From a virus (lineage: Duplodnaviria; Caudoviricetes): 64,000 nt of DNA. This document shows positions 4,949 to 61,070 of this stretch, piece after piece. Below the pieces are notes generated by a model. The model was not told the origin of the DNA, did not search any database, and saw only the letters and a program-made list of their open reading frames with translations. The stretch lies in IMG/VR virus record IMGVR_UViG_3300036770_008730. The stretch is one strand, 5' to 3'. Position numbers and translations under genes: made by a program. The stretch's first letter is position 1; the number at the start of each line of letters is the position of its first letter.

Positions 4949-4967
4949 AAGGGATGATAATACTTTT

Positions 4968-4979
4968 TAATATATATTG
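4968..4979. promoter_or_regulatory. Near-palindromic bidirectional TAATATATA/CAATATATA element between terL and putative terS
   Basis: TAATATATATTG in the 48-bp divergent intergenic region. Confidence 0.5.
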
Positions 4980-8718: not shown

Positions 8719-8791
8719 GTAATTATTTTTATTTTATTATTTATCACATGTAAATATACAAAAAATTTATAAAATTACGGGGATTTCAATT

Positions 8792-8800
8792 TAATATATA
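8792..8800 (+). promoter_or_regulatory. TAATATATA putative late promoter
   Basis: Exact motif upstream of the ATG at 8826. Confidence 0.55.
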
Positions 8801-11955: not shown

Positions 11956-12510
11956 ATGAAACATTTACTAACTTTTGGTCTTTTTTTAGAAAAGGTGGAT
12001 ATTAAAGATACTGATCCAGCTCATATTAGACTTGCTAAAGACAAATTAAATTCAACTGAAGATTATTTGACTCAATACCCTAATTTAAAGGCAAAGATAG
12101 ATAGTATCTATAAAGCTAATAAAGATAAACCTGAGTCAGAGGTTTATAAACAAGTTTTGGATTCTTTGGGTAAAGATGCTAAGTTAAGAAATCCCTTCGC
12201 TGTAACTTATGCTGAAGTAGCAAAATTAGAAATAGAAATTAAAAAAATGACAGATAGTATTTTAGTTGATGATACTGGAATGAAATTATCTTCTCAAAAT
12301 CTTTCATTGGCAACTTCTGAAGATACTAAGAAAAAAATGCAAACAGATTTGATTCAAATGAAGAAAAATCTTGATACAAAAAAGAAAAAACTCGAAGATA
12401 GTTTAAAACAAGTAGATAAGTCAAAGCAGCAAGTAAATACTGAAATCACGAAAACACAGAAAGAAATTGCTGAGGCTTCTAAAAAATTAGCCGAAAAGGA
12501 GAAAAAATAG
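11956..12510 (+). CDS. Coiled-coil protein with capsid-targeting-like leader
   Basis: MKHLLTFGLFLEK leader; K/E-rich C-terminal coil. Confidence 0.65.
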   Translation: MKHLLTFGLFLEKVDIKDTDPAHIRLAKDKLNSTEDYLTQYPNLKAKIDSIYKANKDKPESEVYKQVLDSLGKDAKLRNPFAVTYAEVAKLEIEIKKMTDSILVDDTGMKLSSQNLSLATSEDTKKKMQTDLIQMKKNLDTKKKKLEDSLKQVDKSKQQVNTEITKTQKEIAEASKKLAEKEKK

Positions 12511-16610: not shown

Positions 16611-18317
16611 ATGAATTTTGAGATTTTTAAAAGTCCAGATCCTTCAGGAAGGTTATCAAAAGAATCTTTTATTTCTAATAATTATCCAGAAGAATATATT
16701 TATATTATAGACTTTTGTAGTAAAAATGGAATGAATGATTTACCATTCAAAGAAAAAGTTTATTTAAGTGTTAATAAAATTAACAGATTACCAGTTTGTA
16801 AAAATCCTAATTGTAGTAGTTTGGTTTCTTTTAGAAATTCTACATTGGGTTATCGAGAATATTGTTCTACTAAATGTTTGAGCTCGGATCCGGATATTAA
16901 AAAAATAAAACAACAAAAATCTATACAAAAGTATGGCACAAACACACCCGCTCAATCTCAGGTTATCAAAAATAAAATTATTAAAACTAATTTAGAGAAA
17001 TGGGGAGCTAATTCACCAATGTGTGATGATGGCGTTCGAAAAAAATCTAAAGAAACTCTAATTAAAAATTGGGGAGTTGACAATCCTTCAAAATCTGAAG
17101 AACTTATTGAAAAAAGAATTGAATCTTTTAAACTAAGTGATTTCAAACAAAACTTCAAAAAAACATCTATTGAGAAATATGGAGTAGAACATCCTTGGAT
17201 GAATGAAGATATACACAATAAAACAATCGATTTCTTTTATCAAAACTATAGACAAAGAATTGAATCAAAGATAGATGGTGATTATAAGTTTGTCGGATTT
17301 GCCAAAGGAACGTCTACCTATTTAAACTTCTATTGTAAAAAGTGCGAATCAGATTTTGATATACTGACTTATCAGTTTTACTATCGAATTAATTCTAAGA
17401 TAAGTATATGTACAAAGTGTTTCCCTATTTCTGAAAGTTCATCAGTATCTCAAATTGAACTTTATAATTTTATTAAAGAGAATTATGATGGTGAAATACT
17501 TTTAAATACTAAAGATTTTATTAATCCTTATGAGATAGACATTTATTTGCCCGAACTTAATATAGGATTTGAATTTAATGGTGTTTGGTGGCACAGTAAT
17601 AAATTCAAAAAACAGAATTATCATCAAAGTAAAATACAAATAGCTGAAGATAAAGGAATAAAACTAGTAATGATTTGGGAAGATGATTGGCAAATTAAAA
17701 GAGAAATTTGTAAATCTTTTATTTTAAATAAATTAGGAAAAACAAAAAGTAGAATTTTCGCAAGAAAATGTTTAATACAAGAAGTCAATTATATGGAATC
17801 AAAAAAGTTCTTAGATGAGAACCATTTACAGGGAGATTGTAAGTCATCTATTAGAATTGGATTATTCTTCAATGATGAGATTGTTAGTCTAATGACTTTT
17901 TCAAAACTTAGATTACCTCTTCAAAGATTTGAAAAAAATAGAAATAGAAAAGATCATTTTGAATTAACAAGATTCTGTAATAGAATTGATAGTAATGTAA
18001 TTGGGGGAGCTTCTAAAATGATTAAATATTTTATAGAAAAGAATAATCCAAAACAAATAGAAACCTATTCTGATAATTTAATATCCTCTGGTCACTTATA
18101 TGAGAAAATAGGATTCGAATATACACATACATCAAACCCTGGATATTGGTATGTTGTAAATGGAATAAGACAGCATAGGTTTAACTGGCGAAAACAAAAG
18201 TTAATTAAAATGGGACATGATCCAAGTAAATCAGAGGAGGAGATTATGAATGAATTAGGATATTGGAGAATATATAATGCTGGTAATAAAAAGTGGATAC
18301 TAAATCTCGAAAAATAA
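16611..18317 (+). CDS. Free-standing homing endonuclease (Vsr/DUF559-like PD-(D/E)XK, Hef-like) with zinc fingers and KYG repeats
   Basis: CxxxxC/CxxC pairs, KYGTNTP/KWGANSP/NWGVDNP/KYGVEHP repeats, YEIDIYLPELNIGFEFNGVWWHS nuclease motif; own TAATATATA at 16584. Confidence 0.7.
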   Translation: MNFEIFKSPDPSGRLSKESFISNNYPEEYIYIIDFCSKNGMNDLPFKEKVYLSVNKINRLPVCKNPNCSSLVSFRNSTLGYREYCSTKCLSSDPDIKKIKQQKSIQKYGTNTPAQSQVIKNKIIKTNLEKWGANSPMCDDGVRKKSKETLIKNWGVDNPSKSEELIEKRIESFKLSDFKQNFKKTSIEKYGVEHPWMNEDIHNKTIDFFYQNYRQRIESKIDGDYKFVGFAKGTSTYLNFYCKKCESDFDILTYQFYYRINSKISICTKCFPISESSSVSQIELYNFIKENYDGEILLNTKDFINPYEIDIYLPELNIGFEFNGVWWHSNKFKKQNYHQSKIQIAEDKGIKLVMIWEDDWQIKREICKSFILNKLGKTKSRIFARKCLIQEVNYMESKKFLDENHLQGDCKSSIRIGLFFNDEIVSLMTFSKLRLPLQRFEKNRNRKDHFELTRFCNRIDSNVIGGASKMIKYFIEKNNPKQIETYSDNLISSGHLYEKIGFEYTHTSNPGYWYVVNGIRQHRFNWRKQKLIKMGHDPSKSEEEIMNELGYWRIYNAGNKKWILNLEK

Positions 18318-20748: not shown

Positions 20749-21888
20749 ATGAGTAAAATTTACATGATCGGAGATAGTCACATTGGACTTGGATTTCCAA
20801 ATAGCGTAGATAAATGGTTTAAAGTTCATAAAGAGTATTTTAGTGAATTTTTGATACCTTTATTAAAAAGAGAAGTTAAATCGGGTGATATAATTGTTCA
20901 TTTGGGTGATTTGTTCGACAATAGAAATGTGATTCCTATCAATTTACTTAACTATGGAATGGATATTGTAGAAGAAATATCTAAAATTGCACCATTTCAT
21001 ATTATAGTTGGTAATCATGATCTTTGGTCTAAAAGTGCAAGTGAAGTTAATAGTATTCGTCCATTCAAATGGATTCCAAATGTTTTTGTACATGATACTG
21101 TTACAAAGATAGATTATAATGGTTTGAAACTTTTATTGATGCCTTATGTTGAGAAGAGAGTCGAACAGATTAAATGGATACAAGATAATAGAGATTGTCA
21201 CTATCTTTTTTGCCACTCTGATTTAAATGGTGCTAAAATGCATTTAACATCTGTTGCTCATAAAAATCCTGATAAAATTGATGTCGAGGAGTTTTCAGCA
21301 TTTAAAAAGGTTTACAGTGGTCATATTCACATTGTCTCTGATAACAGTCAGAAAAACTTCAAATTTGTTGGTTCCATTTTTCAAATGGATAGAAATGACA
21401 CCGGAGACCAAAAAGGTATTTTTGTTTTAGATACTGATACCGGTGAAGAAACATTCTTCCCAAATAAGATATCTCCTATTTTTAAGAAATTTAGAGTTGT
21501 TAAAGAAGAAGATGTGGATAGATTAGATGAGATAAAAGATACCAAAGACTATGTTGACTTACAAATTTCTAATAATCTTTTAATTAGTAACAGAAAGCTT
21601 CGTAGAAAACTTGAAGTGATGTTAGAAAAAGGTAACTTTGCCTCTGTTGAATATATTGATGATATTACAAAAGAGTTAGTTGATGGTGAAGAAGTGAATG
21701 AATCTTCAACAGTCGAAGTTGATGAGAATGGAATTGAAATCTCAGTTCAATTAGAATATGAAGACTATATAAAAGAGTATATTCTTAAACAGAAATACGA
21801 CAATGATAAATTTAAATCAGGTGTTATTTCTGAATTTGATGAAGTGATAAAAATTTACACTGACAATTACAAGTCTTCAACAGATTAA
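20749..21888 (+). CDS. gp47: Recombination endonuclease subunit (T4 gp47/SbcD/Mre11 metallophosphoesterase)
   Basis: GDSH, HLGDLFD, GNHD, CHSD and SGHIH motifs. Confidence 0.9.
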   Translation: MSKIYMIGDSHIGLGFPNSVDKWFKVHKEYFSEFLIPLLKREVKSGDIIVHLGDLFDNRNVIPINLLNYGMDIVEEISKIAPFHIIVGNHDLWSKSASEVNSIRPFKWIPNVFVHDTVTKIDYNGLKLLLMPYVEKRVEQIKWIQDNRDCHYLFCHSDLNGAKMHLTSVAHKNPDKIDVEEFSAFKKVYSGHIHIVSDNSQKNFKFVGSIFQMDRNDTGDQKGIFVLDTDTGEETFFPNKISPIFKKFRVVKEEDVDRLDEIKDTKDYVDLQISNNLLISNRKLRRKLEVMLEKGNFASVEYIDDITKELVDGEEVNESSTVEVDENGIEISVQLEYEDYIKEYILKQKYDNDKFKSGVISEFDEVIKIYTDNYKSSTD

Positions 21889-22826
21889 AATTTCAATTCA
21901 CTCACATCTTTTGCTCTACCTGTAGAAGGATCTCTTGAATTAATAATTTTATTCGGATTGATTCCTGGTCTAGTTGTTAGATAAAAACCATTTTCTAATT
22001 CTCCCTTTACACCTAGTAGATTTAGTATTTCTTTAGGACTATTGTGCTTTGAACTAATCAACATTTGCTCAACATTTTCAGCCGTATACATCTTATTATC
22101 TAAATCCGGTTTGTCTGTAGCTTGAAACCATCTGCAATACTGATACATTCCAGAATCCTCATTATTAACATCTATTCGTTCGGATTTATTTTCACTATTT
22201 ACTCTACTATCAATATTTTTCAGATACCAATCTAATGGTGTGAATATTAGATAATCTTCGATATTACCAAACACTTTGAATTCTTTTATTCCTGTATCTA
22301 CATCATCAAATACTATCGTTTTGGCTTTCGAAAAGTAAGCAACCCATGCCATTCCAAATCTTCTACCATCATGGCCATCTTTTTGTTTGCTTTTTGCTTT
22401 TGGATCTGGATCAGTTAAATATCCTATATGTGGTCTTATTTCTTCATATTTCTTTTTTTCCTCATCAGAAGCAATTTCTTGCCATTTTTTGAAATCGTCT
22501 TTGTAGATTTCTATCAACCAAGGATTATCTTTAAAGCTATTAGCAGAAAGTTTGGCTAATTCAGGCAAACCATTTTCTGATATCATCTCCATTAATTTTT
22601 GAAAAATTAAATCGTTGCCTTGAAAATTATCTGTACCTGTTAAGACCTTATCTGCCTCTGGATTTTGATACCAATGGACAATTTTAGTTGGCGCTAAACT
22701 TTTTGAATCGGTTGCTAAATAAGTTTTACCAGAAGCGCTTGGTCCAGATAGCAAAATAAACTTTTTACCTTCAACTCCTTCTTTTAGTAGTTTAATAAAA
22801 CTTTCGTATAACTTTAAGTATTTCAT
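21885..22826 (-). CDS. P-loop NTPase/kinase-like protein with capsid-targeting-like leader
   Basis: MKYLKLYESF..LKEG leader; Walker A GPSASGKT; IVFDD; TAATATATA at 22851-22859. Confidence 0.65.
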   Translation of the reverse strand: MKYLKLYESFIKLLKEGVEGKKFILLSGPSASGKTYLATDSKSLAPTKIVHWYQNPEADKVLTGTDNFQGNDLIFQKLMEMISENGLPELAKLSANSFKDNPWLIEIYKDDFKKWQEIASDEEKKKYEEIRPHIGYLTDPDPKAKSKQKDGHDGRRFGMAWVAYFSKAKTIVFDDVDTGIKEFKVFGNIEDYLIFTPLDWYLKNIDSRVNSENKSERIDVNNEDSGMYQYCRWFQATDKPDLDNKMYTAENVEQMLISSKHNSPKEILNLLGVKGELENGFYLTTRPGINPNKIINSRDPSTGRAKDVSELKF

Positions 22827-22895
22827 AGTTTTGTTTTTTTTTTTCTGTATTATATATTAATTTTTATCCTATAAATTTTTCTAAATATACCAAAC

Positions 22896-23594
22896 CTAAC
22901 TTATTACTTCGATTCCTTCCTGGCCGAAGACGAAGACTTCTCGACCCCTGAAGATGATAGCAGTGTCTTCCGAGATGCCCAATCCTATCTTCCCAGAAGT
23001 AAGACCGACTGCTATCTTCAGGCGAGAGATTCTACCTCTTTCTCTAAAATGAGTGTCTACTACGATGTCTGGCAACATAGATAGACCCTTTTTCATGAGG
23101 GGTATACTTTTGCCACCTGCTATCATCTCTCCGGATAGGGCCATAGCACCAGCAGAAGTACCTACCACAGCCATTCCTTCTGAAAATCGTTGCTTCATTC
23201 TACTCAGGAAGGAAGTTCCCAGGTAACATTCAGTTATTCTCGATTGATCTCCTCCCACGAAGAAAATTGTATCAGCAACATCTAGCTTTTTCAAGTTCTC
23301 TTCGGTGTCAACCTCGGAGGCAGTTGAAGTGTGTAGAAAAGTTGTGATGCATCCCAATCGGTTAAAAATAGGGAGGTATTTTCTTTCAGCATCTTCTTTG
23401 TGGGCAGTGGCTGTAGTCACGACCAAAAGATTAGCAGAACCCAGTCCATTGATAACAAGCTCTAAGCACTTCTCGGATTCAGATCCACCCACTAGAGCAA
23501 ATGTCTGACCATTTCTCAAGTACGGTGCGATCATGTCTTCGTACTTCAGGTTGAAGCTCTCCACCAACCAGTCACCAAAGTTTTTAATAAGCAT
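22896..23594 (-). CDS. cphB: Cyanophycinase-like serine peptidase (family S51)
   Basis: FFVGGDQ, GTSAG (Ser), DTHFRERGR (His), GISEDT (Glu); probable start MLIKNFGDWLVES at 23594 (alternative 23615); GC clearly higher than flanks. Confidence 0.85.
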   Translation of the reverse strand: MLIKNFGDWLVESFNLKYEDMIAPYLRNGQTFALVGGSESEKCLELVINGLGSANLLVVTTATAHKEDAERKYLPIFNRLGCITTFLHTSTASEVDTEENLKKLDVADTIFFVGGDQSRITECYLGTSFLSRMKQRFSEGMAVVGTSAGAMALSGEMIAGGKSIPLMKKGLSMLPDIVVDTHFRERGRISRLKIAVGLTSGKIGLGISEDTAIIFRGREVFVFGQEGIEVIS

Positions 23595-23673
23595 TCTTGA
23601 GGTCTTTCTTTTCATGTTCTATATCGTACCTTTTGTGTCTAAAACCTGATTGTGTCAAATAGTTTTAAGTACC

Positions 23674-23934
23674 TCATAACTTCTGTAATTTTATTTTCAA
23701 ATCACCGGTTCCTTTTATTAGTCTATGATAAATACCCATTGGTATAAAAACTTCTCCCCTTATTTGTTTAGGTAATTCATTATCAATTTGAATCATCCAA
23801 TCTGTTTCACCGATAGATTCAATTATACGATTTTCAAAATCTCGATGCCACATAAATTCACCAGAATCTGTATCTTGTTTGAACTCTCTGATAAATGTAT
23901 TATCACTTAATTTAGTTTCTTTAAATGGTAACAT
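23674..23934 (-). CDS. Small cupin-fold protein
   Basis: WHRD..R and IPMGIYHRLIKG cupin His motifs. Confidence 0.6.
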   Translation of the reverse strand: MLPFKETKLSDNTFIREFKQDTDSGEFMWHRDFENRIIESIGETDWMIQIDNELPKQIRGEVFIPMGIYHRLIKGTGDLKIKLQKL

Positions 23935-23938
23935 ATTT

Positions 23939-24727
23939 TTATTTATTATATAAACCTAGATAGTATTTTAATTTCTGAGGAAATTCCGTTCCCGCTGCTT
24001 TTATCTTTTGATACAATTCATCAGACATATCTTTATGTCTTTTACGAAACTCATCAGGAGACATAAACCATAAATATAAATTCAATTTTTCTTTGGATCT
24101 TTCTACCATGTCTATTTCACGAAGTTTTTTCAAATCCATTTTGGTTTCTCCTGGGTATTTTTTTGAGTATAAATAAGCGAATTGTTTTGCATGAGAATCT
24201 ACTTCCTTTTTTGATGCTAAGTATGAATATCCTTCATCTTCACCTGATTTAAATCCTTCTTTTTCTATATTTGCAATATGTTGAACCTCATGTTGTAAAC
24301 TCGATTTTAGGGCATCTACTGGATAATTAAATAATTTAGTAGTTCCTATTTCAATGCCTTCGGTTCTTATAGGATCATTTTTTGATTTTATTGCAGCTCC
24401 TTCACTCTTTGGTATCAAACGTATAAAGAAATCTTTTTGCAGAGATTTAAATGATTTCTTAATAATTGGATCAATCTGGTCAAAATCAGTTAATAAAGTA
24501 GCTGGCTCTGATGATAATCTTATATTTTGATAAGGTTTATAATGTTTTTTTATAAACTCACTTATACTTAAATTTCCTGGATTTTTTTGATAATAAATTG
24601 AAATTTGAGACTTGAAATCTAAAAGCACATCTCTAAGGAATTTATAAATCAATTTTATAGATTTATTTTCATCTTCACTTAAATATTCAGCATTTTCGAA
24701 TAGACTGTATGTTTTTAGATACTTCAT
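23939..24727 (-). CDS. Putative zinc metallopeptidase with capsid-targeting-like leader
   Basis: Start MKYLKTYSLFENA at 24727; HEVQH (HExxH) and downstream EVDSH Glu. Confidence 0.55.
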   Translation of the reverse strand: MKYLKTYSLFENAEYLSEDENKSIKLIYKFLRDVLLDFKSQISIYYQKNPGNLSISEFIKKHYKPYQNIRLSSEPATLLTDFDQIDPIIKKSFKSLQKDFFIRLIPKSEGAAIKSKNDPIRTEGIEIGTTKLFNYPVDALKSSLQHEVQHIANIEKEGFKSGEDEGYSYLASKKEVDSHAKQFAYLYSKKYPGETKMDLKKLREIDMVERSKEKLNLYLWFMSPDEFRKRHKDMSDELYQKIKAAGTEFPQKLKYYLGLYNK

Positions 24728-24741
24728 AACCAATTTATTTT

Positions 24742-25701
24742 TTACCAGAATCCCGGATAAGTTTTTCCGCCCCACAAATGTCCATATTTATTTATGCGAC
24801 ATGCCCAGTATCCAGCCTTTGTCTTATCCTTCTTTGTAGAACATTTATGACGAGCAGCAAATGACTTTCTTGCCTTAGGATTGCTCACCTTAGCAGTTAA
24901 TCCACCGTGAACATCACCAAAAGAAATCTTTTTAACCTTACCAGTTTTAGGATTCTTTACATAAACTTGATATTTTTTAGTACCACCACGCATTGGATAA
25001 TTTAACTTAACTTTTTTACCCTTATATTCCGCCTCATTTACTTCTTCTATATTTTCCATAGGTAAATCCAAAGGAACCTTTTTCCCATTAAAATAACCAA
25101 AGTTACCTATCTCGGTCTCTCTGTATAATGATTCATCAATACTACAAAGTTTTATTTTACCAGAATCATATAATCTTCTAGCTTCTGTTAAAACATTAAA
25201 GAAAGATTTTGAACCAGGTCTAAAAATACTTTCTGTTATTGGTTTGTTGTTGGTTAAGTGCCATTTTAAGTTCTCCGATACTTCAGGCATTGAGACAAAT
25301 TGAACTTGTAAGTCACCACACTGACAGTCATCACATCCACAATCACACTCAGAGTCTCCTGTGCAATCATCACAACAACCACATCCTTCACCTTCTTCAT
25401 ATTCTGATTCAAATTCATCATCATCATCATCATCTTCATATTCACCGATTTCAAATTCGTTTTCACATTCCATATTTTCAACATTATCAATATTGATGGT
25501 TATGAATGATTCAAATTTTTCAACTTTATTTTTCTTAAGATTATTTAATTCTTTTTCATCGTGTTCAACAGGTTCAGTTTTGATACCTAATCCCATGATT
25601 TCTTCTTTCTCATTTTCTAAAGATTTAGCTGAGAATCCAAAGTCTTCTTCTTTAACTTTTTTTTCTTTCTTCTTTTCGTTGAATTTTCTGAGATGTTTCA
25701 T
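24742..25701 (-). CDS. Multidomain protein: leader, acidic/Cys-rich cluster, basic C-terminal domain
   Basis: MKHLRKFNE; CGCCDDCTGDSECDCGCDDCQC; KKYQVYV..KKISFGD..SFAARHKC..GYWAC. Confidence 0.65.
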   Translation of the reverse strand: MKHLRKFNEKKKEKKVKEEDFGFSAKSLENEKEEIMGLGIKTEPVEHDEKELNNLKKNKVEKFESFITINIDNVENMECENEFEIGEYEDDDDDDEFESEYEEGEGCGCCDDCTGDSECDCGCDDCQCGDLQVQFVSMPEVSENLKWHLTNNKPITESIFRPGSKSFFNVLTEARRLYDSGKIKLCSIDESLYRETEIGNFGYFNGKKVPLDLPMENIEEVNEAEYKGKKVKLNYPMRGGTKKYQVYVKNPKTGKVKKISFGDVHGGLTAKVSNPKARKSFAARHKCSTKKDKTKAGYWACRINKYGHLWGGKTYPGFW

Positions 25702-25703
25702 AG

Positions 25704-27062
25704 TTATTTTTTAGTTTTTATAAGATATTTCTTTATAAGTAGTTTCCAAACAGGTTCTTCTCTATCACCAATTCTCATTATTTCTTCGTTTCCAGCTCTT
25801 AAGTTTATTGAGTGAATTAGAGTTCTGATGTTGAGGTCAAATTTCACCGGATAGTTATCAGTAACATAAATTAGGTATTCTAAAGCTTCTTCTTTTAGTT
25901 TCATATCTAATTCTGGTGATATTCTTGACATAATCTCTTTCATTCTTGAAATGATTTCTTCTTTGTTAAGATTTACATCAACATGTAGAGACCTAGAAAG
26001 AATTGCGTCATCGAATTTCTCTTCTGCTAAATTAGAAATGAAAATCACCTGACCTGAAAATTCGAATCTGTTAGGTAACATTCTTCCCTCTTTTTCTTCA
26101 TATTCTTGTTGAATTTCTAAATCACTCATACCTGTTGAGTCAAAAGTGTTACCTTTTGTCAGTTTAGATAGTTCTCTTACTGGATAAGTATCTAAAGCTC
26201 CTTTAAGTAAGTTTACTGAATCGGCATCTTTTAGAACAGCATCACAATCATCAAAGATGATTAACTTATTTCTGTGTTTGAATAGGACTTCAAATAGACC
26301 AGCTGTTGTAATGGTGCCTGTTGATTTATAATAGTGAACATCTGGTTGCATTCCAATAGATCTTAGCGTGTCTGTTACAACTGAAGTTTTACCAACACCC
26401 GCTTGTCCACTTACAATTAGAGAATTACTTTTACCTCTTGCAACTTGTATTGTGTATAATTCAATAGCTTTGAAAATATCAATTTTAAGATCTTGAACAG
26501 TTATTTTATCTGATTCTTTTTCAGCCTTTTCTGTGGTTGCAACAATTGCTCTTAGTTGTTCAATTCTTCTTTCAATTTTTTCAACGCTAGTTGGAGACTT
26601 TGCTCTTTTTCTTTTCTTTTCCCACTCTTGGAGCTCTTCTTTTGGATCATAAGTTTCTTGTAGTTCTGTTTCTTCTACCTTTTGAATCATTGATTCCGGA
26701 TTATTGAAGAAGTCTACTACAAAAGGTAAATGTTTAACAATTGATTCATCTTTAGGTATAAAGAGAGTAAATTCTGGATTCTTCTCAAATTCAAAATTCA
26801 ACCATAAATCTATTGAATGTATTACATTTCTAATGTCATCTTCTTTCCAATTTATTCTAATGGCCTTTGTTGTTTTAAGAGAAATAAATAATTGACCTCT
26901 TAGAAAGTCCATTCCTTTTTGAATAAAGAATATTTCGTTATATGGATATAAATCATTTCCAGTCTTTCTTTCGATAAATTCTGTTATTTTTTGTATAGCA
27001 TCTTCTTTATCCTTGGATAGAAATGCCTCTAAAAATAGTTCGTATTTTTTTAAGATTTTCAT
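25704..27062 (-). CDS. AAA+ ATPase with capsid-targeting-like leader
   Basis: MKILKKYELFLEA; Walker A GQAGVGKT; Walker B IIFDDCD; sensor/arginine finger FISN..ILSRS; TAATATATA at 27070-27078. Confidence 0.8.
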   Translation of the reverse strand: MKILKKYELFLEAFLSKDKEDAIQKITEFIERKTGNDLYPYNEIFFIQKGMDFLRGQLFISLKTTKAIRINWKEDDIRNVIHSIDLWLNFEFEKNPEFTLFIPKDESIVKHLPFVVDFFNNPESMIQKVEETELQETYDPKEELQEWEKKRKRAKSPTSVEKIERRIEQLRAIVATTEKAEKESDKITVQDLKIDIFKAIELYTIQVARGKSNSLIVSGQAGVGKTSVVTDTLRSIGMQPDVHYYKSTGTITTAGLFEVLFKHRNKLIIFDDCDAVLKDADSVNLLKGALDTYPVRELSKLTKGNTFDSTGMSDLEIQQEYEEKEGRMLPNRFEFSGQVIFISNLAEEKFDDAILSRSLHVDVNLNKEEIISRMKEIMSRISPELDMKLKEEALEYLIYVTDNYPVKFDLNIRTLIHSINLRAGNEEIMRIGDREEPVWKLLIKKYLIKTKK

Positions 27063-27069
27063 ATGTTCA

Positions 27070-27113
27070 TATATATTAATTTTGTGGACTAAGAAATGTA
27101 AAATTAATATATA
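27070..27113. promoter_or_regulatory. Back-to-back TAATATATA promoters
   Basis: Minus-strand copy at 27070-27078 and plus-strand copy at 27105-27113 in a 74-bp divergent gap. Confidence 0.6.
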
Positions 27114-27136
27114 ATGAAAACTTGTAGATTAATTAG

Positions 27137-30100
27137 ATGTCTAACCATAAAAACCTTGTATTCTTTAACAAAGAAGGAGATTACTTAAATTTCAATTATA
27201 GTGAAGCTAATGATAGATTTGAAGGTGATATTCTCTTTCATGAAAGTTCATCAGACACATACAAAACTGCTGGACTTTATATGCTTGAAAGCGTTCCTTC
27301 TATTGATTATGAAGTTCCGGGTGAATTAGGATTATTAAAATTTCAATTATTTAATGAATATGGATTGCATTTTTATGCAGCAAAATCTTTCACACAGTCG
27401 ATTACAAAAATTGAACCAATCAACAATGACTCTTCTTTTTATTCTAAATGGATTTATGGTATTGATTTTGAATCAAAATTTCCTATAGGAAGTATCATCA
27501 AATTTGATTCTGTTTATTTAGAGTTCACCGACCTCAACAAAACTTATTGTGTAGTTGGTTCAAAGAAAAATGCTATCATGATTATCAGTGAAATTGATAA
27601 TGCTAGCTTTGAAAGTTTATATTATACTACATATACTGATGTGACTACTTATGTTAATAAAACCATTTCAGGTGCTAATTTAGTCGGTGTTTATAATTAT
27701 ATTGATAATTCCTTTAATAATAATTTATCTGGATGGTCTGAACCTGATTTTTATGATAAGTATTATATTGGGAAAAAATTAAATATAGTTGGTAGTGAAA
27801 ACAATGATGGAATTGTTACTGTTACAAATGTCGATGTTACTGACCAAGTTCATTTTGAATATTTTGTGTCGGATTCTAGCTTGCCAATTGGAACTGACAT
27901 ATTGATAGAAGTTATCACTAAAACCGATCTTCCTAAAATTTATGAGTCTGGAATTACAATTACTGGTGATAATAAGATAAAGTTTGACACTGCTTATCTT
28001 TTTCCAAGAATTCTCAAACCAGGAACCGAATTTAAAATTACAGGATCTGTATTCAATGATATCTTTTTTACGGTTTCTGATGTGACTGTATTTGAATCAG
28101 TAAATGTTACCAAATTCTATAGCTTAGGTGAACAGGTTTATTATAATAATTTACTTTTTCAATGTATTCAGGCTTATACACACAGTCATTCTTCTGACCA
28201 GACAAGAAATGTTACTCCTTATAATACAAATTATTGGAGTAAACCGGATTATGTAACTGTTGACCAGTCAACAACCTCTGAAACAATACTTAATGGTCAA
28301 GTTTATCTTACATCCGATAGATATTATTTTGCATATGGTTACACATATAGTCAATCGGTTACTTTGGCTTCTGCTGCTGAAAAGTTCAAAAATGATTTAT
28401 TAGCTTTCAATATAGATTTATTTTATTTAAATGGAAAATTAAAGGCAGACTTAAAGTATCCATCAAAATATAGTGAGGTTAATTTTTATCATACCCAAAA
28501 AGGCCCAACTTATTCGATTGGTGGTTATTTTCAAACTAACGAAAGAATGGTTCAGGTTAGAGAAAATTTAAATTATGAATTAAACTATAATTACAGTAGT
28601 AATTTTAAATACAACATAGTTTTCACAGATATAGATGAGTTTGGTATAAAACTTATATTGAATAAACAAGTTTATGAGGAAGAAATCTCTTATGTTTATA
28701 CTGGATTAGTAATTGATATGCCAAGAACTATAGATAGGACTTTGAGAAATTGGCTATCTAGAAATTATATCAGGTTATATGTTCTCGGAATAGAAGCTGA
28801 ACTGGCTTATATTGGTAGTTTTTATTCGCCTTTTTATAATGCTATAAAATTAAAAACAACCTATCCTAATGTTCCTCTAAATATCAATAATGTGTTGGTT
28901 GGATCAACCGCTGATTATCATATTGAACACTCAAGAGTTATGTTTTATGATTTGGGACCTTATCTCAATCTTAACATAAACGGAGATGATTATGGTATAT
29001 CTACGGTTTATGGTACTGGGTCTATTCCAGATGTTTCCTCAACTCTTACTAATTGGGTAAATGAACATGGTGAAATACTTGCTGAGTATAAAATTATAGT
29101 TAAAAACTATAATAATCTTTTGAAGTTTGATGTAAAAGAAATGGATAGAAGATTAGATTATACAATCAGTACTGGTAAATTGAAAATTCCTGGAATCAAT
29201 GATTATGTAATTACTGATAAATTACCAGGTAGTCTTGGTATGTTAATATCTTCTAATCAGATTACATTGACAGGTACTGGAGACTCATCTTTTGAACTAG
29301 ATGGATTTGCAACTGGTATGGTGGTTACTATTAATAATACTTTTTATCCTTATAATAATCAACAATATAATATTCAATTTTTAGATCCTCTTGTTATGGA
29401 TTTGAGCTATGAGGGTCCTTTTTGGTCAATTGGTGATGCAATTTGTAACTCATCAGCTTTTGTTACTTTGGCTTTCAATTTAGGATTTGGTCAAACTGGT
29501 TGTCAACCCATAGTTGGTCCAACTGGTGGTACTGGTTCTGGAGGACCTTTTGATCCGACTATGTTTAGTCTTTCAATGTTTAGTTTGAGTTATAATCCAA
29601 ATGTTTATACACTAAATACTTATAATTTGAATGCTTATCCGGGTGTTACAGGATTGGTTGATATAATCTATATTCAGTTATCTGAGTCAATTTATGGATT
29701 TGGAGACAATGTTGTTGTACTAGATTCGTATAGTGGTGATTATATAACGACTGTAAATCTTCCAGGAAATACACAAAGTATAGAAATAGAATTTAACACT
29801 GTAAATAATTATTTGTATTGTCTATCTGAACAACAAATAAATGTTGTGGATCCATTACTCAATACTTTAGTTACTACTATTTCTCTTACAAGTTCTAATC
29901 CATCAGCTCAAGCATTTGATATGTTGGTCAATCCATTGAATGGTGATGTTTATGTTACATATAAGAATTGGGCTAGAGTAGATATTTTTGCATCTAATAA
30001 CCTAACTAGTTCTCCATCGGATTTTCTTTCTACATCCTCTGTTAACTTTCCTGTATCCGCGACTCGAACCGGTAAGATGGTTTACAATGAGTTTGAAGTT

Positions 30101-32968
30101 GATATTTATATTACTACGGATGTTGATACTGTTTTGAGAGTCAATGGTGGTGGTGTTAGTAATGGAACAAATAGAACTATACAGACTACGTTTGGTATAC
30201 CTGGATTAACACATTCTATTTTTTATGAGCCTGTGAATGAATCAATCTATGTTTATGGTGGTTCTAGTTTATGGAAAATTGATAATGGTGTCACACAATC
30301 TATACCTTCTATATCTACTTATGGTTTTAATGATATACTTTTCAACAATCTAACAGGTGTGATGAATGTGTCTGATACATCTACTAACTTTTCTAGATTA
30401 GACCTTAATACTAATGTTGCTAATCAAACATCGGTCTCAAATTATGGTTACATAGAGTTGAATCAGTTTGATGGTGATGTTTATTTATCATCTCAATCTT
30501 TAAATAACATCATTGTTGTAAAATCTACTGATGGTACTGTAATTCAAACACTACCAATGGCCGCACAAACAACAAGATTAGTTTATAATCCTGATAGAAA
30601 ATCAATATGGGCTATTCAACCATCATTAAATAGTGTTATTGAGGTTCAAGTTCAGTTGAACAGTTTGATTAATATTTTGCCTGCTACTTATTCACAGCTT
30701 GAGGATAATCAATATGGTACATTATCTCCGGATTATGTTCCTAGACAAAATCTTTGGTTGAAAACCGATGAGTATCTTAGAAGACCGAGAGAAAACTTTG
30801 AAGGGGAAGTTTCTGTTAAATACTATTATAAATGGTTATCTGATAATATTCCTATGTTTTTCCTTTATGATATAAGTGGAGAACAATTGCCAACTACAGG
30901 ACCTTATGCGTATACTGGTCAGAAACCGCTCGAAAATCCATCACTTAATAGATTGCCTAATAAAGATGTTGAGAAAACTGGTGATTCAGAGTATCAACAA
31001 ACAATTTTTGATAAAGTTGAGTATACTTTAAGTTATCTTGATGATGAAGATGATGTTACTATTGAAGTAACACCTATAGAGACTTTTATTGGGTTTAAAT
31101 CAGATGAGGAAGGAGCTTTTAGATCGATTCTTCAATTATATAAAAAAGAGGATATTGAAATAAGTTTTACTGCTAGCGCTACTACTTATTTAAAGTTTGA
31201 AACGGTTGATATAGAAAATTTAACCGGTGATAAAAAAGGAATTATCACTTTGGTTTCTGATTCAGAGACTTTTACTGGTAAGGGACTTAAAAACGGTCAG
31301 TGGATTGCTATCTATGTTAAAGATACGATTAATGTAAAAAATCAATATATTTCTGAAAATAATGGTATTTTAGTAAAAATACGTGAGATATATACAAAGT
31401 ATATTATAATAGATTTTTTCAACAACTCTGTTGATTTTCTTGTTAGTGAAAATACTAGAGTTTTGGATTATCCATCTATATCAAATACTACGTATTTGAT
31501 TACGACAATTAAAGTTATTGATAAGGAAATAGGTAGATTCTTCACTTATGGACAGACAGAGATAGAAGATCCTAGATTTAAAATTGAGCTATCAAATGTT
31601 GGTAAATTAATCGCTCCAAATGAAGTATTTATTTTCAAAGATTATGATATATTTGAAGGTGCTACTGACTGGACTTTCTTAAATGCTAAAAGAAAAGAGA
31701 TGTTGATGATGAAAAATTTAATTTTTCCATATATCGGCGCTTACAAATCTCTTATAAATTCTATAAACTATTTTGGATATAATGATCTTCAATTAAATGA
31801 GTATTATAGAGATATAAATACAAGTTCTCCAAATTTTGGTAAGTTATTTAAGGTTGAAATTCCAGATATCTTTGATAATACTGTTGAAGGTTGGAAAGAG
31901 ACCGATTTCATAAAAGGATTCTCAACAGATAACTATGAAGTTACTAATTCATTCAACCTAACTTATTTTATAACTGATAAGGACGGTAATAATATATTGA
32001 CATATAGCTTAGATGAAATAATTATAAAACTCCAGGGACTAAAGTATTGGTTAAAGAGAAATATTATACCAATAACTCATAAAATTTTAGATATAACTGG
32101 TAGAGCATATAACAGTGGTTCTAACTACATCAAACATCGTGTTCAGGAGATTAGAGTTGTTAATATGAAAGATAGTATGACTCCTATAACTTTCAACATG
32201 AATGAGACATACTTAATGCCTGTAAATAGCGGATCAACAGTTTATAATTGCGTTGTTGACTTCTATAGTATAGTTCCTTTGCCTATGACTCAGAGTCTAT
32301 ATGATGTAATGGATTCAAGAAATTCACCTATTTACAACTCACCACGAGAAAATAAAATAATACCTAAGCCTTATTCTGGTCAATCTGTTGATTATCCTGA
32401 TTATTTCAATCTTAAAATAAGAACATATAAAACATATCCGGAGTGGAATCCATTTCAAACATATGATTTTGGAGAAAATGTAACTTATTTTGGTTCTGTT
32501 TATCAGTCTGCTACACAATCTAATAAACTTAAGAATCCTCGAAAATATGATGATGTTCAAACATTTCAGTCAACAAATAGATATACCGTTGCTGAAGTTG
32601 TAAGGTATAGTGATGAGGTTTATGTTTTTTCTGGACTTGGTTCTACATATTCTGCTACTCAATCAGCTCCTACGCCACTTATAGACTCATCTAATTGGTT
32701 AAGAATTACTGAGTGGAAAAAGATTAATTTACAACCGGTTCAATATATAACTGAATATAGAAAAGGAAATGATTTGAGACCATTTAATTTTTCAATAGAT
32801 TCTAATATTGACCCTTTTTGTGTTATAGAATTGACTACTGATAATGGTTATGGATGTGTTTACACACAGAAAAAGAACTATGAAATAAGAGGTCTTAAAG
32901 ATATTACTCAATCACTTAATCCAGTTGATCCAATTGGTCCATTTTCTCCAATCGCACCTGTTTATTAA
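27137..32968 (+). CDS. Very large structural protein (baseplate/tail), beta-rich, with propeller-like and CBM5/12-like modules
   Basis: 1943 aa, T/S/N/Y-rich; YVTN-like blades; YSLGEQVYYN and WNPFQTYDFGENVTY modules; GAYKSLINSINYFGY..E phage structural motif. Confidence 0.6.
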   Translation: MSNHKNLVFFNKEGDYLNFNYSEANDRFEGDILFHESSSDTYKTAGLYMLESVPSIDYEVPGELGLLKFQLFNEYGLHFYAAKSFTQSITKIEPINNDSSFYSKWIYGIDFESKFPIGSIIKFDSVYLEFTDLNKTYCVVGSKKNAIMIISEIDNASFESLYYTTYTDVTTYVNKTISGANLVGVYNYIDNSFNNNLSGWSEPDFYDKYYIGKKLNIVGSENNDGIVTVTNVDVTDQVHFEYFVSDSSLPIGTDILIEVITKTDLPKIYESGITITGDNKIKFDTAYLFPRILKPGTEFKITGSVFNDIFFTVSDVTVFESVNVTKFYSLGEQVYYNNLLFQCIQAYTHSHSSDQTRNVTPYNTNYWSKPDYVTVDQSTTSETILNGQVYLTSDRYYFAYGYTYSQSVTLASAAEKFKNDLLAFNIDLFYLNGKLKADLKYPSKYSEVNFYHTQKGPTYSIGGYFQTNERMVQVRENLNYELNYNYSSNFKYNIVFTDIDEFGIKLILNKQVYEEEISYVYTGLVIDMPRTIDRTLRNWLSRNYIRLYVLGIEAELAYIGSFYSPFYNAIKLKTTYPNVPLNINNVLVGSTADYHIEHSRVMFYDLGPYLNLNINGDDYGISTVYGTGSIPDVSSTLTNWVNEHGEILAEYKIIVKNYNNLLKFDVKEMDRRLDYTISTGKLKIPGINDYVITDKLPGSLGMLISSNQITLTGTGDSSFELDGFATGMVVTINNTFYPYNNQQYNIQFLDPLVMDLSYEGPFWSIGDAICNSSAFVTLAFNLGFGQTGCQPIVGPTGGTGSGGPFDPTMFSLSMFSLSYNPNVYTLNTYNLNAYPGVTGLVDIIYIQLSESIYGFGDNVVVLDSYSGDYITTVNLPGNTQSIEIEFNTVNNYLYCLSEQQINVVDPLLNTLVTTISLTSSNPSAQAFDMLVNPLNGDVYVTYKNWARVDIFASNNLTSSPSDFLSTSSVNFPVSATRTGKMVYNEFEVDIYITTDVDTVLRVNGGGVSNGTNRTIQTTFGIPGLTHSIFYEPVNESIYVYGGSSLWKIDNGVTQSIPSISTYGFNDILFNNLTGVMNVSDTSTNFSRLDLNTNVANQTSVSNYGYIELNQFDGDVYLSSQSLNNIIVVKSTDGTVIQTLPMAAQTTRLVYNPDRKSIWAIQPSLNSVIEVQVQLNSLINILPATYSQLEDNQYGTLSPDYVPRQNLWLKTDEYLRRPRENFEGEVSVKYYYKWLSDNIPMFFLYDISGEQLPTTGPYAYTGQKPLENPSLNRLPNKDVEKTGDSEYQQTIFDKVEYTLSYLDDEDDVTIEVTPIETFIGFKSDEEGAFRSILQLYKKEDIEISFTASATTYLKFETVDIENLTGDKKGIITLVSDSETFTGKGLKNGQWIAIYVKDTINVKNQYISENNGILVKIREIYTKYIIIDFFNNSVDFLVSENTRVLDYPSISNTTYLITTIKVIDKEIGRFFTYGQTEIEDPRFKIELSNVGKLIAPNEVFIFKDYDIFEGATDWTFLNAKRKEMLMMKNLIFPYIGAYKSLINSINYFGYNDLQLNEYYRDINTSSPNFGKLFKVEIPDIFDNTVEGWKETDFIKGFSTDNYEVTNSFNLTYFITDKDGNNILTYSLDEIIIKLQGLKYWLKRNIIPITHKILDITGRAYNSGSNYIKHRVQEIRVVNMKDSMTPITFNMNETYLMPVNSGSTVYNCVVDFYSIVPLPMTQSLYDVMDSRNSPIYNSPRENKIIPKPYSGQSVDYPDYFNLKIRTYKTYPEWNPFQTYDFGENVTYFGSVYQSATQSNKLKNPRKYDDVQTFQSTNRYTVAEVVRYSDEVYVFSGLGSTYSATQSAPTPLIDSSNWLRITEWKKINLQPVQYITEYRKGNDLRPFNFSIDSNIDPFCVIELTTDNGYGCVYTQKKNYEIRGLKDITQSLNPVDPIGPFSPIAPVY

Positions 32969-39060: not shown

Positions 39061-39109
39061 ACAAAACTTTTTACTTAAGGAGTATATATAAAATAAGGCT
39101 ATGTTTCTT

Positions 39110-39118
39110 TAATATATA
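39110..39118 (+). promoter_or_regulatory. TAATATATA putative late promoter (divergent TTTATATATA at 39083-39092)
   Basis: Exact motif 5 nt upstream of the ATG at 39124. Confidence 0.55.
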
Positions 39119-42552: not shown

Positions 42553-42569
42553 TTTAATATATAATAAGT

Positions 42570-56184: not shown

Positions 56185-56691
56185 ATGATTGATTGTGATT
56201 ATATAATTTTTCACGGTGACCGAAATGTCGGAAGAAGTTCATTGTTATTTACTTTAGCTAACATCTGTAAGTCTAATAATGAAACTACTTTTTTCTTTGG
56301 CACCACCGATGAATTCAATTCAGAATCTATGATAGATAGTCCTTTTTCGAGAAAGTTCTTTTATAGACACAGAGATACAAGGTTAGTCGAAAATATTTTT
56401 CAAATAGCAGAAAGAGAAAAGTGTCAGTATGTTTTTATCGATGATATTGATTTTCTAAGTGTAGAGGATTTGAAAATAATTAATGAGTCAAAAGTCAAAA
56501 AAATTGCAACTTGTCTCACTGGTAAGATTCCTAAGCTTACGACTTATAAATCCTATGAATTATCTAGTGTATATGATGATGCAACCTTTAGAGAAGAAAA
56601 ATACCTCAGTTCTGATGGTTCAAAAATACCAATTACAGTTTTTTTCAAAACATTTGAAAGAGACAAAAAAATAAATTCAATACTTAAATGA
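56185..56691 (+). CDS. Degenerate P-loop NTPase-fold protein
   Basis: GDRNVGRS (Walker A K to R), VFIDD; C-terminal FERDKKINSIL. Confidence 0.55.
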   Translation: MIDCDYIIFHGDRNVGRSSLLFTLANICKSNNETTFFFGTTDEFNSESMIDSPFSRKFFYRHRDTRLVENIFQIAEREKCQYVFIDDIDFLSVEDLKIINESKVKKIATCLTGKIPKLTTYKSYELSSVYDDATFREEKYLSSDGSKIPITVFFKTFERDKKINSILK

Positions 56692-57863
56692 AGAATAATG
56701 TTGATGAACAATATTTACAATTAGTAAAACACATACTTAAAAATGGTGTAAAGAAATCTGATAGAACTGGAACTGGAACACTTTCGGTTTTTGATTATTC
56801 TATGAGATTCGATATGAGTGAAGGATTTCCACTCTTAACATCAAAAAAGATGTTTACAAAAGGTGTGATTCACGAACTTATTTGGTTTTTAAGGGGAGAT
56901 ACAAATATCAAATATCTTGTTGATAATGATGTTCATATCTGGGATGGAGACGCTTATAAACGATTTTTAACAGATGCAGCATCAATTAAAGAAGGATATT
57001 TGTCAGGTGACATTTTAGGTTCACAACCACACATTGATGAAATGTTTAGTAATCCTGATGAATTGATTATTTTAACAAAAGAAGAATTCATTGAAAAAAT
57101 CAAAACAGACGATGAATTTGCTAAGAAGTGGGGAAATCTCGGTCCCGTGTATGGGAAGCAATGGATAAGTTGGTCTAAATTTAATGATCGATCGGCAAGA
57201 GTAACTAAGCAAATTAGAGAAACTCCAAAAGATGGAGGATTTCCACAAACCAGAAATATTAATTGGATTGAAGGTGGTGAAGTAGTTTACATAGACCAAA
57301 TCGCAAACCTAATCAACGACCTTAAAACAAATCCTGATTCTAGAAGACTAATGGTAAGTGCCTGGAACGTCGGTGAAATAGACAATATGGTTTTGCCTCC
57401 ATGTCACTATGGATTTCAATGTTATACACAAGAGATGAATCTCTTTGAGAGAAAAAAATGGTGGTGTGAGTCTTTGGAGAAAAGTATTCATTATGCTGAA
57501 GATTTTAATGAGAAAGAACTAGACACATTAAATGTTCCTAAAAGAAAATTAAGTTTAAAATGGAATCAAAGATCGGTCGATGTCGGTTTAGGTTTGGGAT
57601 TCAACATAGCTTCTTATGCTTTACTTTTACACTTACTTGCAAAAGAGGTAAATATGATACCAAATGAGTTGATATTCTCTGGTGGAGATTGTCACATTTA
57701 TTTGAATCATGTTGAGAAGTTAAAAGAACAGTTACAAAATGAAACTTTTGAATTGCCAAAATTAGAATTAACAAATACATCTTTTGATGATATAAAGTAT
57801 GAAGATATAAAAATAATAAATTACAAATCCTCAGGGGTTATAAAAATGAACTTATCAAATTAA
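56688..57863 (+). CDS. thyA: Thymidylate synthase with insertions
   Basis: DRTGTGT, LPPCH catalytic Cys, QRSVD..FNIASY (Asn gives dUMP specificity), HIYLNH. Confidence 0.97.
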   Translation: MKNNVDEQYLQLVKHILKNGVKKSDRTGTGTLSVFDYSMRFDMSEGFPLLTSKKMFTKGVIHELIWFLRGDTNIKYLVDNDVHIWDGDAYKRFLTDAASIKEGYLSGDILGSQPHIDEMFSNPDELIILTKEEFIEKIKTDDEFAKKWGNLGPVYGKQWISWSKFNDRSARVTKQIRETPKDGGFPQTRNINWIEGGEVVYIDQIANLINDLKTNPDSRRLMVSAWNVGEIDNMVLPPCHYGFQCYTQEMNLFERKKWWCESLEKSIHYAEDFNEKELDTLNVPKRKLSLKWNQRSVDVGLGLGFNIASYALLLHLLAKEVNMIPNELIFSGGDCHIYLNHVEKLKEQLQNETFELPKLELTNTSFDDIKYEDIKIINYKSSGVIKMNLSN

Positions 57864-61024: not shown

Positions 61025-61061
61025 TTCCTTAAAAATATATAAAAAAAAGACTTTAAATACT

Positions 61062-61070
61062 TAATATATA
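61062..61070 (+). promoter_or_regulatory. TAATATATA putative late promoter
   Basis: Exact motif upstream of the ATG at 61096. Confidence 0.55.

Follow-up and report, generated by a model that had tools for sequence, protein, structure and literature searches.

A slot for exchangeable leader-tagged genes in an uncultured huge phage and its possible link to capsid packaging

The 64,000-nucleotide stretch of IMG/VR record IMGVR_UViG_3300036770_008730 (Duplodnaviria; Caudoviricetes), referred to here as the window, comes from an uncultured phage of the ~0.6-Mb class. Between a gene for an SbcD/gp47-like nuclease subunit and one for a protein of ~1,900 amino acids (aa) it possesses a slot, which is occupied by a cassette of six minus-strand genes (21885-27062), five of them starting with a similar short N-terminal leader, or tag. 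The window has a GC content of ~30%; besides SbcD, its products include a tail sheath, a tail tube and many proteins with no assigned function. Of the phages in the databases, the uncultured LR756502 (642 kb), LR745206 (635 kb) and LR756504 (636 kb) are closest to it and the Lak phages are more distant. A megablast search of INPHARED with the cassette DNA gave no match. The features of the slot and its flanks are as follows.

20749-21888, plus strand: left flank, SbcD/gp47-like recombination nuclease subunit (phrog_100, E 2e-53)
21885-22826, minus strand: leader-tagged P-loop protein of 313 aa, N-terminus MKYLKLYESFIKLLKE, Walker A motif GPSASGKT
22851-22860, minus strand: promoter-like motif TTAATATATA, 24 nt 5′ of the P-loop ATG
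22896-23594, minus strand: leader-tagged S51 peptidase of the cyanophycinase type (TIGR02069), 232 aa, N-terminus MLIKNFGDWLVESF
23639-23677, minus strand: orphan leader, an open reading frame (ORF) of 12 codons, MRYLKLFDTIRF and stop, its ATG overlapping the stop of the 86-aa gene (ATGA)
23674-23934, minus strand: 86-aa protein without a leader, a constant gene of the slot
23939-24727, minus strand: leader-tagged HExxH protein of 262 aa, N-terminus MKYLKTYSLFEN, leader MKYLKTYSLFE followed by N, motif HEVQH
24742-25701, minus strand: Cys-cluster protein of 319 aa with a leader-type N-terminus, MKHLRKFNEKKK, an acidic region and a cluster of nine Cys
25704-27062, minus strand: leader-tagged AAA+ ATPase of 452 aa, N-terminus MKILKKYELFLEAF (phrog_1250, E 6e-35)
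27070-27079, minus strand: motif TTAATATATA heading the cassette, 7 nt before the AAA+ ATG
27104-27113, plus strand: motif TTAATATATA heading the divergent 1943-aa gene, on the strand opposite to the cassette
27137-32968, plus strand: right flank, 1943-aa protein of no known family, kept in relatives

The original prediction, made from the letters of the window, had placed leaders on five of six co-oriented genes, and the starts at 27062, 25701, 24727, 23594 and 22826 are all ATG codons of long ORFs, with the 86-aa gene being the one without a leader. The cupin label given to the latter is not supported, as no Pfam, PHROG or NCBIfam match was found for it. Both flanks are conserved, with identities of 56-86% overall in the three complete relatives and IMG/VR relatives. 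The SbcD gene, which is convergent with the cassette, is present in all relatives (56-58% identity to LR756502 and LR745206), and a scan of metagenome contigs with SbcD gave 80 related loci (57-80% identity), 31 of which have both flanks and are termed complete slots. The 1943-aa protein, for which a PHROG search gave no match, has 56% identity to its counterparts in LR756502 and the IMG/VR relatives and 46-80% over the N-terminal 500 aa compared, a segment recovered in 31 of the 80 loci.

The leader has the pattern M-K-x-[LI]-[KR]-x-[FY], extended by x(0-3)-[LI]-x-E in the full tag with which nearly all exchanged genes start, and is usually 11 residues in length, otherwise 8, 12 or 16. A regular expression (regex) for the leader matches 10 of the 63 window genes, whereas 2000 shuffles of the N-termini give 1.2 on average and 6 at most; it is found at just 2 of 362 internal Met positions, and five leader genes among six consecutive genes have a permutation P of 0.0086. 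The leader ends in LYE8 and LKE16 for the P-loop protein, LVE12 for the S51 protein and LFE11 for the HExxH protein. That of S51 (MLIKNF...) is a variant one residue shorter, reading MLIKNFGDWLVE followed by S; there is an in-frame ATG upstream at 23615, with the start at 23594 being favoured by homologues that begin MPIKNF or MTIKNF. In the Cys-cluster protein the second aromatic residue is missing and there is no [LI]xE.

The share of proteins with [LI]xE in the first 22 aa is 94% for the P-loop family, 79% for the phage S51 clade and 76% for the HExxH proteins, compared to 11-25% for control windows, 27% for cellular S51 proteins and just 5% for the Cys-cluster family. Several features indicate that the tag acts at the level of protein. 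Among P-loop leaders, which come from genomes of 28-43% GC, 33% of the codon pairs for a same residue differ in codon, and the hydrophobic residue at position 4, the aromatic residue at position 7 and the Glu are kept despite very different DNA. The leader is retained in the P-loop family down to 31% identity. In both AlphaFold2 (AF2) models obtained (P-loop and HExxH), it is detached from the body and of low model confidence (pLDDT), being predicted as a free helix with low confidence. It is on this codon variation, retention and detachment that the protein-level action of the tag rests.

Comparison across relatives strongly supports the proposal of the original prediction that the cassette is an exchangeable island, with flanks being conserved and contents differing both between relatives and between near-identical strains. 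For five of the six cassette genes, the three complete relatives have no homolog at any genomic position. The slots of LR756502 and two IMG/VR contigs consist of the AAA+ gene with three or four small genes, all with leaders. The 31 complete slots range from 476 to 7145 bp and hold 130 ORFs belonging to 40 body families, at least 24 of which are tagged by the strict regex, with several others having evident variants such as MNHLLLFEDF and MSKIHNYDNFLNEEFF. The backbone of the slot is formed by the untagged 86-aa gene (in 50 of the 80 related loci and 28 of the 31 complete slots, with a leader in none) and the semi-constant Cys-cluster gene (35 of the 80 loci). Unrelated genes are exchanged at three insertion positions.

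The position between these two backbone genes, where the window has its HExxH gene, is the most variable of the slot; HExxH itself is present in 2 of the 80 loci. No gene is found there in 10 of 36 loci, while the rest carry 13 unrelated bodies, of which at least nine begin MK[HY]LK[TSA]Y-x-x-FE[SN], so that the pattern of variable enzymes behind constant leaders expected from the original prediction was found. When seven of these unrelated bodies are compared, DNA identity starts at 0.87 (nt 0-14), falls to 0.78 (nt 15-29) and 0.51 (nt 30-44) and is ~0.35 thereafter; conservation thus ends at [LI]-F-E-[SN], and a leader block of ~33 nt stands near-identical before unrelated bodies. The leaders are, on these alignments, partly position-specific residents behind which bodies are swapped, which gives a mechanistic form to the claim of the original prediction that leaders are acquired by enzymes. 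The idea that leader DNA is homogenised far beyond codon bias was found to be weak, given a same-codon fraction in the leader block of 0.68 against 0.55 expected from codon usage; since the former barely exceeds the latter, the case for DNA homology as a recombination substrate rests on breakpoints. There are also untagged GIY-YIG-like genes (starting IYKITNLINNKIYIGKD) inside the slot in four loci, namely L050 (3546-4883), L052 (12892-14262), L056 (12532-13329) and L054 (10451-11869). From their sequences these look like homing endonucleases and could drive exchange.

Breakpoints were located by comparing the cassette region with contigs from independent metagenomes (runs X4, X5 and X12). Joints which were ambiguous or had a side below 30 were excluded, among them 25527 to 27091, 27114 to 27739 and an X12 joint that "goes back" from 24729 to 22803, and coverage gaps in runs X4, X5 and X10 were not counted as evidence. 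A freshwater strain in X5, ~98-99% identical to the window, has a joint of 21874 to 23655 with 44 nt between (side 255) and is therefore a strain without the S51 and P-loop genes. Run X12 includes contigs bearing S51 as well as one with a joint of 22858 to 23655 (side 52), from which the gene is missing or in which it has been replaced. Of the coordinates involved, 23655 falls on the eighth codon of the orphan leader, and the one at the right edge of the S51 indel, 22858, lies inside a TTAATATATA motif. In an X4 contig that matches the Cys-cluster gene, the likeness extends over just 11 nt of the HExxH ORF and then gives way to other sequence.

The orphan leader MRYLKLFDTIRF is the sole short ORF with a strict leader on either strand of the window and is kept in the near-identical contig L021. 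At the same ATGA junction, relatives have either an intact leader gene from the same start or no gene and a terminator-like hairpin, and on this comparison the stretch from 23677 to 23639 is best described as a scar left when a leader gene was displaced. Locus L068 (~12100-12165) has another orphan leader, in which MKYLKLYE runs into 13 unrelated codons and a stop, and which marks a replaced cassette; L066, whose SbcD region is 96% identical to that of L068, has the intact gene. Exchange takes place at the tag and at the TTAATATATA motif, with breaks in leader codon 8 and in the promoter. That the slot is an exchange hotspot of tagged genes we regard as very probable. Even if packaging should prove to be wrong, it clearly exemplifies how a coding leader can be the joint at which genes recombine and are exchanged.

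The S51 protein is assigned to the cyanophycinase type by TIGR02069 (148.2 bits, cut-off 126.6), with a match also to Peptidase_S51 and to the solved cyanophycinase 7uqv (E 2e-29). Invariant residues are the Ser of GTSAGA, the His of DTHF and ED, corresponding to S154, H189 and E216 in the numbering of the 239-aa form (alignment A1). The cellular enzymes are separate from the clade of its 14 nearest homologues (P0001-P0014, 46-97% identity), of which most have a leader-type N-terminus, and of five contigs of this clade that were examined the four with sequence look phage-derived. The phage clade adds a leader and linker to the N-terminus of the catalytic domain and lacks the C-terminal ~45 residues of cellular enzymes (covering positions 28-215 of the 250 in the profile). 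As this is not the full-length cellular architecture, activity on cyanophycin is uncertain. Cellular cyanophycinases are at most 40% identical to the S51 protein, lack a leader and start directly at the catalytic domain.

The S51 gene had been singled out for its high GC, and at a GC of 0.445 and a third-position GC (GC3) of 0.438 against a window mean GC3 of 0.218 (standard deviation 0.055) it does rank highest of the 63 genes. GC is ~0.45-0.55 over ~23590-22930 and ~0.11-0.2 just outside, with a fall at 22896. None of the 80 related loci has the gene in this slot, and it is a recent arrival in the window. Because the phage clade has the leader and cellular homologues do not, it arrived already tagged; judging from these sequences, its tagging probably occurred earlier, within phages, and the donor was most likely another phage and not a cell. 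Direct capture from a bacterium was considered and rejected, given the separate clade, most of it leader-bearing, and the low cellular identity. In a second phage lineage (L017, 7271-8879; L023-L025, 5264-6885) a tagged P-loop gene is immediately preceded by an S51 gene that has no leader, in the order of the window. In 11 other P-loop loci the two genes are not adjacent, and their adjacency may reflect either a functional pair or a shared insertion site. In a T4-like contig the S51 homologue P0011 lies directly upstream of a Peptidase_S77 gene, which is followed by a 452-aa gene and then a Gp23 gene. An S51 gene of a T4-like contig (L008, 10001-14909; also L009) that takes the place of the T4 prohead core genes, just before the Peptidase_S77 gene, a 452-aa gene and the Gp23 gene, encodes 90 extra residues at its N-terminus.

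For the P-loop protein, which had been called a kinase, the Walker A motif is present and is conserved together with IVFDD (a Walker B-like hhhhDD), and the kinase assignment found no family match. No Pfam or NCBIfam match was obtained, and Foldseek against the PDB gave nothing at E <= 1e-3. The best VIA match of its AF2 model (pLDDT 87) is to polynucleotide kinase 4gp6 (Z 7.9 over ~140 of 313 residues, rmsd 3.8), with a Z of 6.9 to T4 polynucleotide kinase; as such Z values are common for VIA, the likeness to polynucleotide and NMP kinases is a weak one. In its family (P0121-P0240), the 20 members read (31-99% identity) have the N-terminus MKYLKLYExF or a close variant. The gene was found in this slot in 0 of 80 related loci, and the family occupies other slots of other huge phages, often beside further leader genes, so that, to judge from the family, which carried the leader before, the gene reached the window already tagged. 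The P-loop gene followed by the high-GC S51 gene, both pre-tagged, are the latest arrivals in the window strain.

The HExxH family is small (34 representative clusters), with H146, E147, H150, Y169 and E175 being nearly invariant, and its AF2 model (pLDDT 88, with the leader below 50) has a beta-sheet, an HExxH helix and a second helix bearing E175. Fold matches are weak, namely the ChlB HExxH domain (E 0.055) and M1 aminopeptidase (Z 4.7), with Foldseek against the PDB giving none at E <= 1e-3 and a VIA-wide search no convincing match; on its conserved residues the protein is a putative gluzincin-type metallopeptidase. A body of 63% identity occurs elsewhere in a different context, with an unrelated N-terminus ending L-N-E. 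These observations bear on the claim that enzymes in the slot acquire the leader. It is supported in part, by this HExxH body and by the leaderless S51 of cells and of L017, set against the tagged clade. It does not extend to the S51 and P-loop genes of the window, which were not tagged here and belong to families already bearing the leader. The companion claim of ongoing recruitment stands when taken as gene flux, with the GC3 outlier, the presence/absence polymorphism and the orphan-leader scar speaking for it.

The Cys-cluster protein matches phrog_7595 over residues 220-302, has a conserved C-terminal domain and belongs to a very large viral family (5758 homologues, 55-75% identity) in which the Cys residues are invariant. 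In related loci it is often present as two genes, each with a leader, as in L044, L045, L052, L093, L096 and L104. The N-terminal part begins, for example, MKHIKKFNETKK..., and the second gene has, for example, MKIIKFTESVN... directly before the conserved SESLKYHL domain; the fused protein of the window has an internal leader-like KVEKFESFI at about residues 62-70. The AAA+ protein has the motifs GQAGVGKT and IIFDDCD and matches phrog_1250 clearly, with its Pfam AAA_16/AAA match lying below the cut-offs. LR756502 and two IMG/VR contigs have leader-bearing orthologues of it (66-68% identity) in this slot, and the gene is present in 3 of the 80 closer loci. Its T4-like homologues (e.g., EnC15_0093) lack the leader and the N-terminal 130 aa.

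As the original prediction had it, the cassette is headed by a short motif; TAATATATA in the form given there, it reads TTAATATATA at 27079-27070, where 7 nt separate it from the AAA+ ATG, with a second copy at 22860-22851. There are 13 exact copies of TTAATATATA in the window against 1.4 expected, each lying 4-26 nt 5′ of a start codon on the correct strand, among them those at 727-736, 4967-4976, 8791-8800, 39109-39118, 42554-42563 and 61061-61070, while forms with one mismatch precede the tail sheath gene and other large genes. From this placement it appears to behave as a promoter element, one which we take to resemble the TATA-type T4 late box TATAAATA and not an early promoter, its class being presumed from that likeness. 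At four genes the motif ends just 4-7 nt before the ATG, at which distance mRNAs would be leaderless or nearly so. A scan of the cassette for sigma-70 promoters and intrinsic terminators gave nothing above shuffles and no conserved stem-loop partner of the motif.

Some further observations were made in the window outside the cassette. A 568-aa homing/HNH endonuclease-like gene (16611-18317; phrog_3339, E 3e-120), headed by TTAATATATA, sits between the sheath gene and the next conserved gene and has no counterpart there in LR756502, LR745206 or the IMG/VR relative. The leader gene starting at 1432 (785-1432) has a very high first-position GC of 0.66 and is overlain by a 146-aa antisense ORF (766-1206) with Leu-Pro-Leu-Ser repeats; its composition suggests a repetitive acidic or Gly/Glu-rich product. 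There is also a thymidylate synthase homolog of 391 aa (56688-57863), for which the PHROG matches suggest an internal insertion, midway along the enzyme.

Of the systems defined by experiment, the one nearest in layout is the capsid targeting sequence (CTS) of phage T4, where 10 N-terminal aa are enough, targeting depends on residues 4 and 7, processing on residues 8 and 10, and cleavage occurs at L/I-X-E (PMC9026906). As with the CTS of IPI, IPII and IPIII (MKTYQEFIAE, removed by gp21), a tag of ~10 residues is all that unrelated proteins have in common, and the tag here shares the M-K start, the hydrophobic residue at 4, the aromatic residue at 7 and an [LI]-x-E followed by a small residue (PMC9026906). 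It differs in having a basic residue at position 5, and there is no detectable homology between the two. By this likeness the tag would bind the protein to the prohead core, the head maturation protease would cut after the Glu of L/I-x-E, and the products of the cassette would travel in the capsid, with some entering the host along with the DNA. The slot would then be the counterpart of the internal protein (Ip) hotspots of T-even phages, loaded with enzymes. In favour of this reading are the excess of [LI]xE near the N-terminus in three families, the end of leader conservation at the Glu, the S51 homologue P0011 beside a Peptidase_S77 gene and the one-mismatch form of the promoter motif before the tail sheath gene. 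Putative genes for a head maturation protease were also identified in relatives (phrog_207, E 5e-28; weak Pfam S77 match, E 2e-5). The phrog_207 match is to an ORF of LR756502 at ~225.3 kb, and a single ORF of ~700 aa matching PF03420 (Peptidase_S77, E 3e-6 to 1e-4) is present in each of the three complete relatives and in one IMG/VR contig. That the tag directs packaging is plausible, with chances we would place at even or slightly above, and the favoured reading as a whole, a tagged exchange slot with packaging in the manner of the T4 CTS, is held with only modest preference. Injection into the host would follow from the resemblance to the T4 CTS, the Ips and Alt of T4 being injected (PMC12373910, PMC9026906).

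A number of points weigh against this reading. The S77 matches of the relatives lie below the Pfam cut-off. The T4-like Ip N-termini MKTYQEFINE and MKTYNEFLNE do not match the leader regex, and the tag has one residue more between its aromatic residue and [LI]xE than the T4 CTS. Two of the five leaders, those of the AAA+ and Cys-cluster proteins, have no [LI]xE. The homologues of the AAA+ protein in Enterobacter phage EnC15 lie within a run of short hypothetical genes, in what we take from the T4 gene order to be an early region. A tblastn search of INPHARED with the P-loop and S51 proteins gave no match, and no cultured carrier was found in it. The same-codon fraction given above, 0.68 against 0.55, also counts on this side. 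Lastly, large enzymes such as the 452-aa AAA+ exceed the T4 Ips in bulk, but T4 Alt is large too, as are engineered CTS fusions (PMC9026906).

If the tag is an address on the protein, it need not be one for the capsid. A phage partner shared by the tagged proteins could recognise it, for instance a chaperone, a membrane site, a compartment for replication or assembly or the AAA+ ATPase encoded alongside, and the slot would then be a store of intracellular accessory enzymes. The AAA+ ATPase recurs in the slot and is itself tagged, the AAA+ and Cys-cluster leaders lack the cleavage-type [LI]xE, and a free helix of the kind predicted, at low confidence, could dock on many partners. Against this, conservation stops exactly at [LI]-x-E and a small residue in most families, as would be predicted of a propeptide removed by a protease, where a docking helix need not show such an end; one S51 homologue lies inside a head-morphogenesis module, and the T4 CTS, the closest experimentally defined system of the same layout, targets the capsid (PMC9026906). 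We consider a non-capsid address unlikely, though with an appreciable chance of being right. Less likely again is that the tagged proteins are packaged but not injected, having prohead roles as maturation helpers, in scaffold clearance or in association with DNA, or being discarded after assembly. Such roles would fit the S51 gene that adjoins prohead protease and scaffold-position genes in the T4-like contig, the many T4 core proteins that have cleaved propeptides without being effectors (PMC9026906) and the conservation of the Cys-cluster family, which suits a structural or assembly function over that of an arms-race effector. The turnover of bodies (40 families in 31 loci, with strain-level indels) is nevertheless typical of host-interaction genes and not of assembly factors, and the closest analogues, the T4 Ips and Alt, are injected (PMC12373910, PMC9026906).

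Two further explanations place no function in the peptide. The 5′ block might be mainly a nucleic-acid module in which promoter, translation start and recombination linker are combined, and which would serve to move or capture genes. The promoter motif and leader do travel together and mark breakpoints, the leader block keeps 78-87% DNA identity over unrelated bodies at one position with an excess of shared codons, and promoter-based modular shuffling is known in T4-type phages (PMC2839356, PMC4122927). What argues otherwise is that the residues are kept while codons vary (in 33% of the same-residue P-loop pairs, across genomes of 28-43% GC), that leaders differing greatly in DNA agree in the hydrophobic residue at 4, the aromatic one at 7 and the Glu, and that the motif is rare at internal Met; we hold this module to be improbable. 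Finally, the cassette might be an ordinary accessory operon in which similar N-termini arise from AT-rich codon bias and chance, given that codons for K, Y, L, F, N, I and E dominate in a genome of 30% GC. With 10 matches observed against 1.2 in shuffles, a P of ~0.009 for the five-gene run and the same leader before seven unrelated bodies at one position, this has already been refuted and is given next to no credence.

With the favoured reading, the tagged slot with CTS-like packaging, what is already known is the T-even ip hotspot with its CTS, and what is new is the dynamics of such a slot in uncultured huge phages, with enzyme-sized cargo and strain-level exchange at the leader. A search for literature on megaphage capsid targeting or on the leader strings found no match. 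In the T-even ip loci (Repoila et al., 1994, as cited in PMC3012670 and PMC12373910), Ips have the leader alone in common and are located in hotspots between conserved genes, where leader-sharing genes interchange. Those Ips are small and basic and the three characterised in T4, Ip1-3, inhibit GmrSD-type restriction, whereas the bodies here are enzyme-sized (S51, P-loop, HExxH and AAA+), comprise 40 families in 31 loci with orphan-leader scars and strain-level indels, and belong to phages whose hosts are environmental bacteria. The hyperplastic regions of T4-type phages, with their mobile promoter cassettes (PeSLs), similarly have variable genes between core genes and a short promoter motif flanking the units (PMC2839356, PMC4122927); in the slot the coding leader is also a breakpoint, and no stem-loop partner was found. 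A further partial parallel is with the ejection (E) proteins and propeptide-processed head proteins of the giant phages phiKZ and SPN3US, since large phages place many proteins in the head and trim them after Glu by a gp21-related protease (PMC9026906, PMC10052503). The phiKZ and SPN3US propeptides are long and varied, with an S/A/G-X-E motif, and not a short uniform tag, and we know of no swappable slot of tagged genes described for either phage.

A wider and more tentative proposal, which we think may well be wrong, is that a short recombination-competent address label of this kind would be a general cargo-loading system, in which any gene landing behind a leader or arriving with one becomes a capsid passenger. 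The result would be an integron-like, population-wide library of injected enzymes, with dozens of families (peptidases, P-loop enzymes and AAA+ ATPases among them) turning over at strain level in dedicated slots, far larger and more enzymatic than the T-even Ips. If the tag is a capsid address, the slot illustrates the way in which very large phages build up and refresh a payload of enzymes for delivery on infection, it bears on the many unexplained genes of huge phages, and cargo becomes predictable from sequence. Foreign proteins could be loaded into such capsids by means of the short tag, a use to which the T4 CTS is already put. The slot is in any case a natural experiment, having one tag, many bodies and gain and loss at strain level, which can be traced in lake and subsurface metagenomes.

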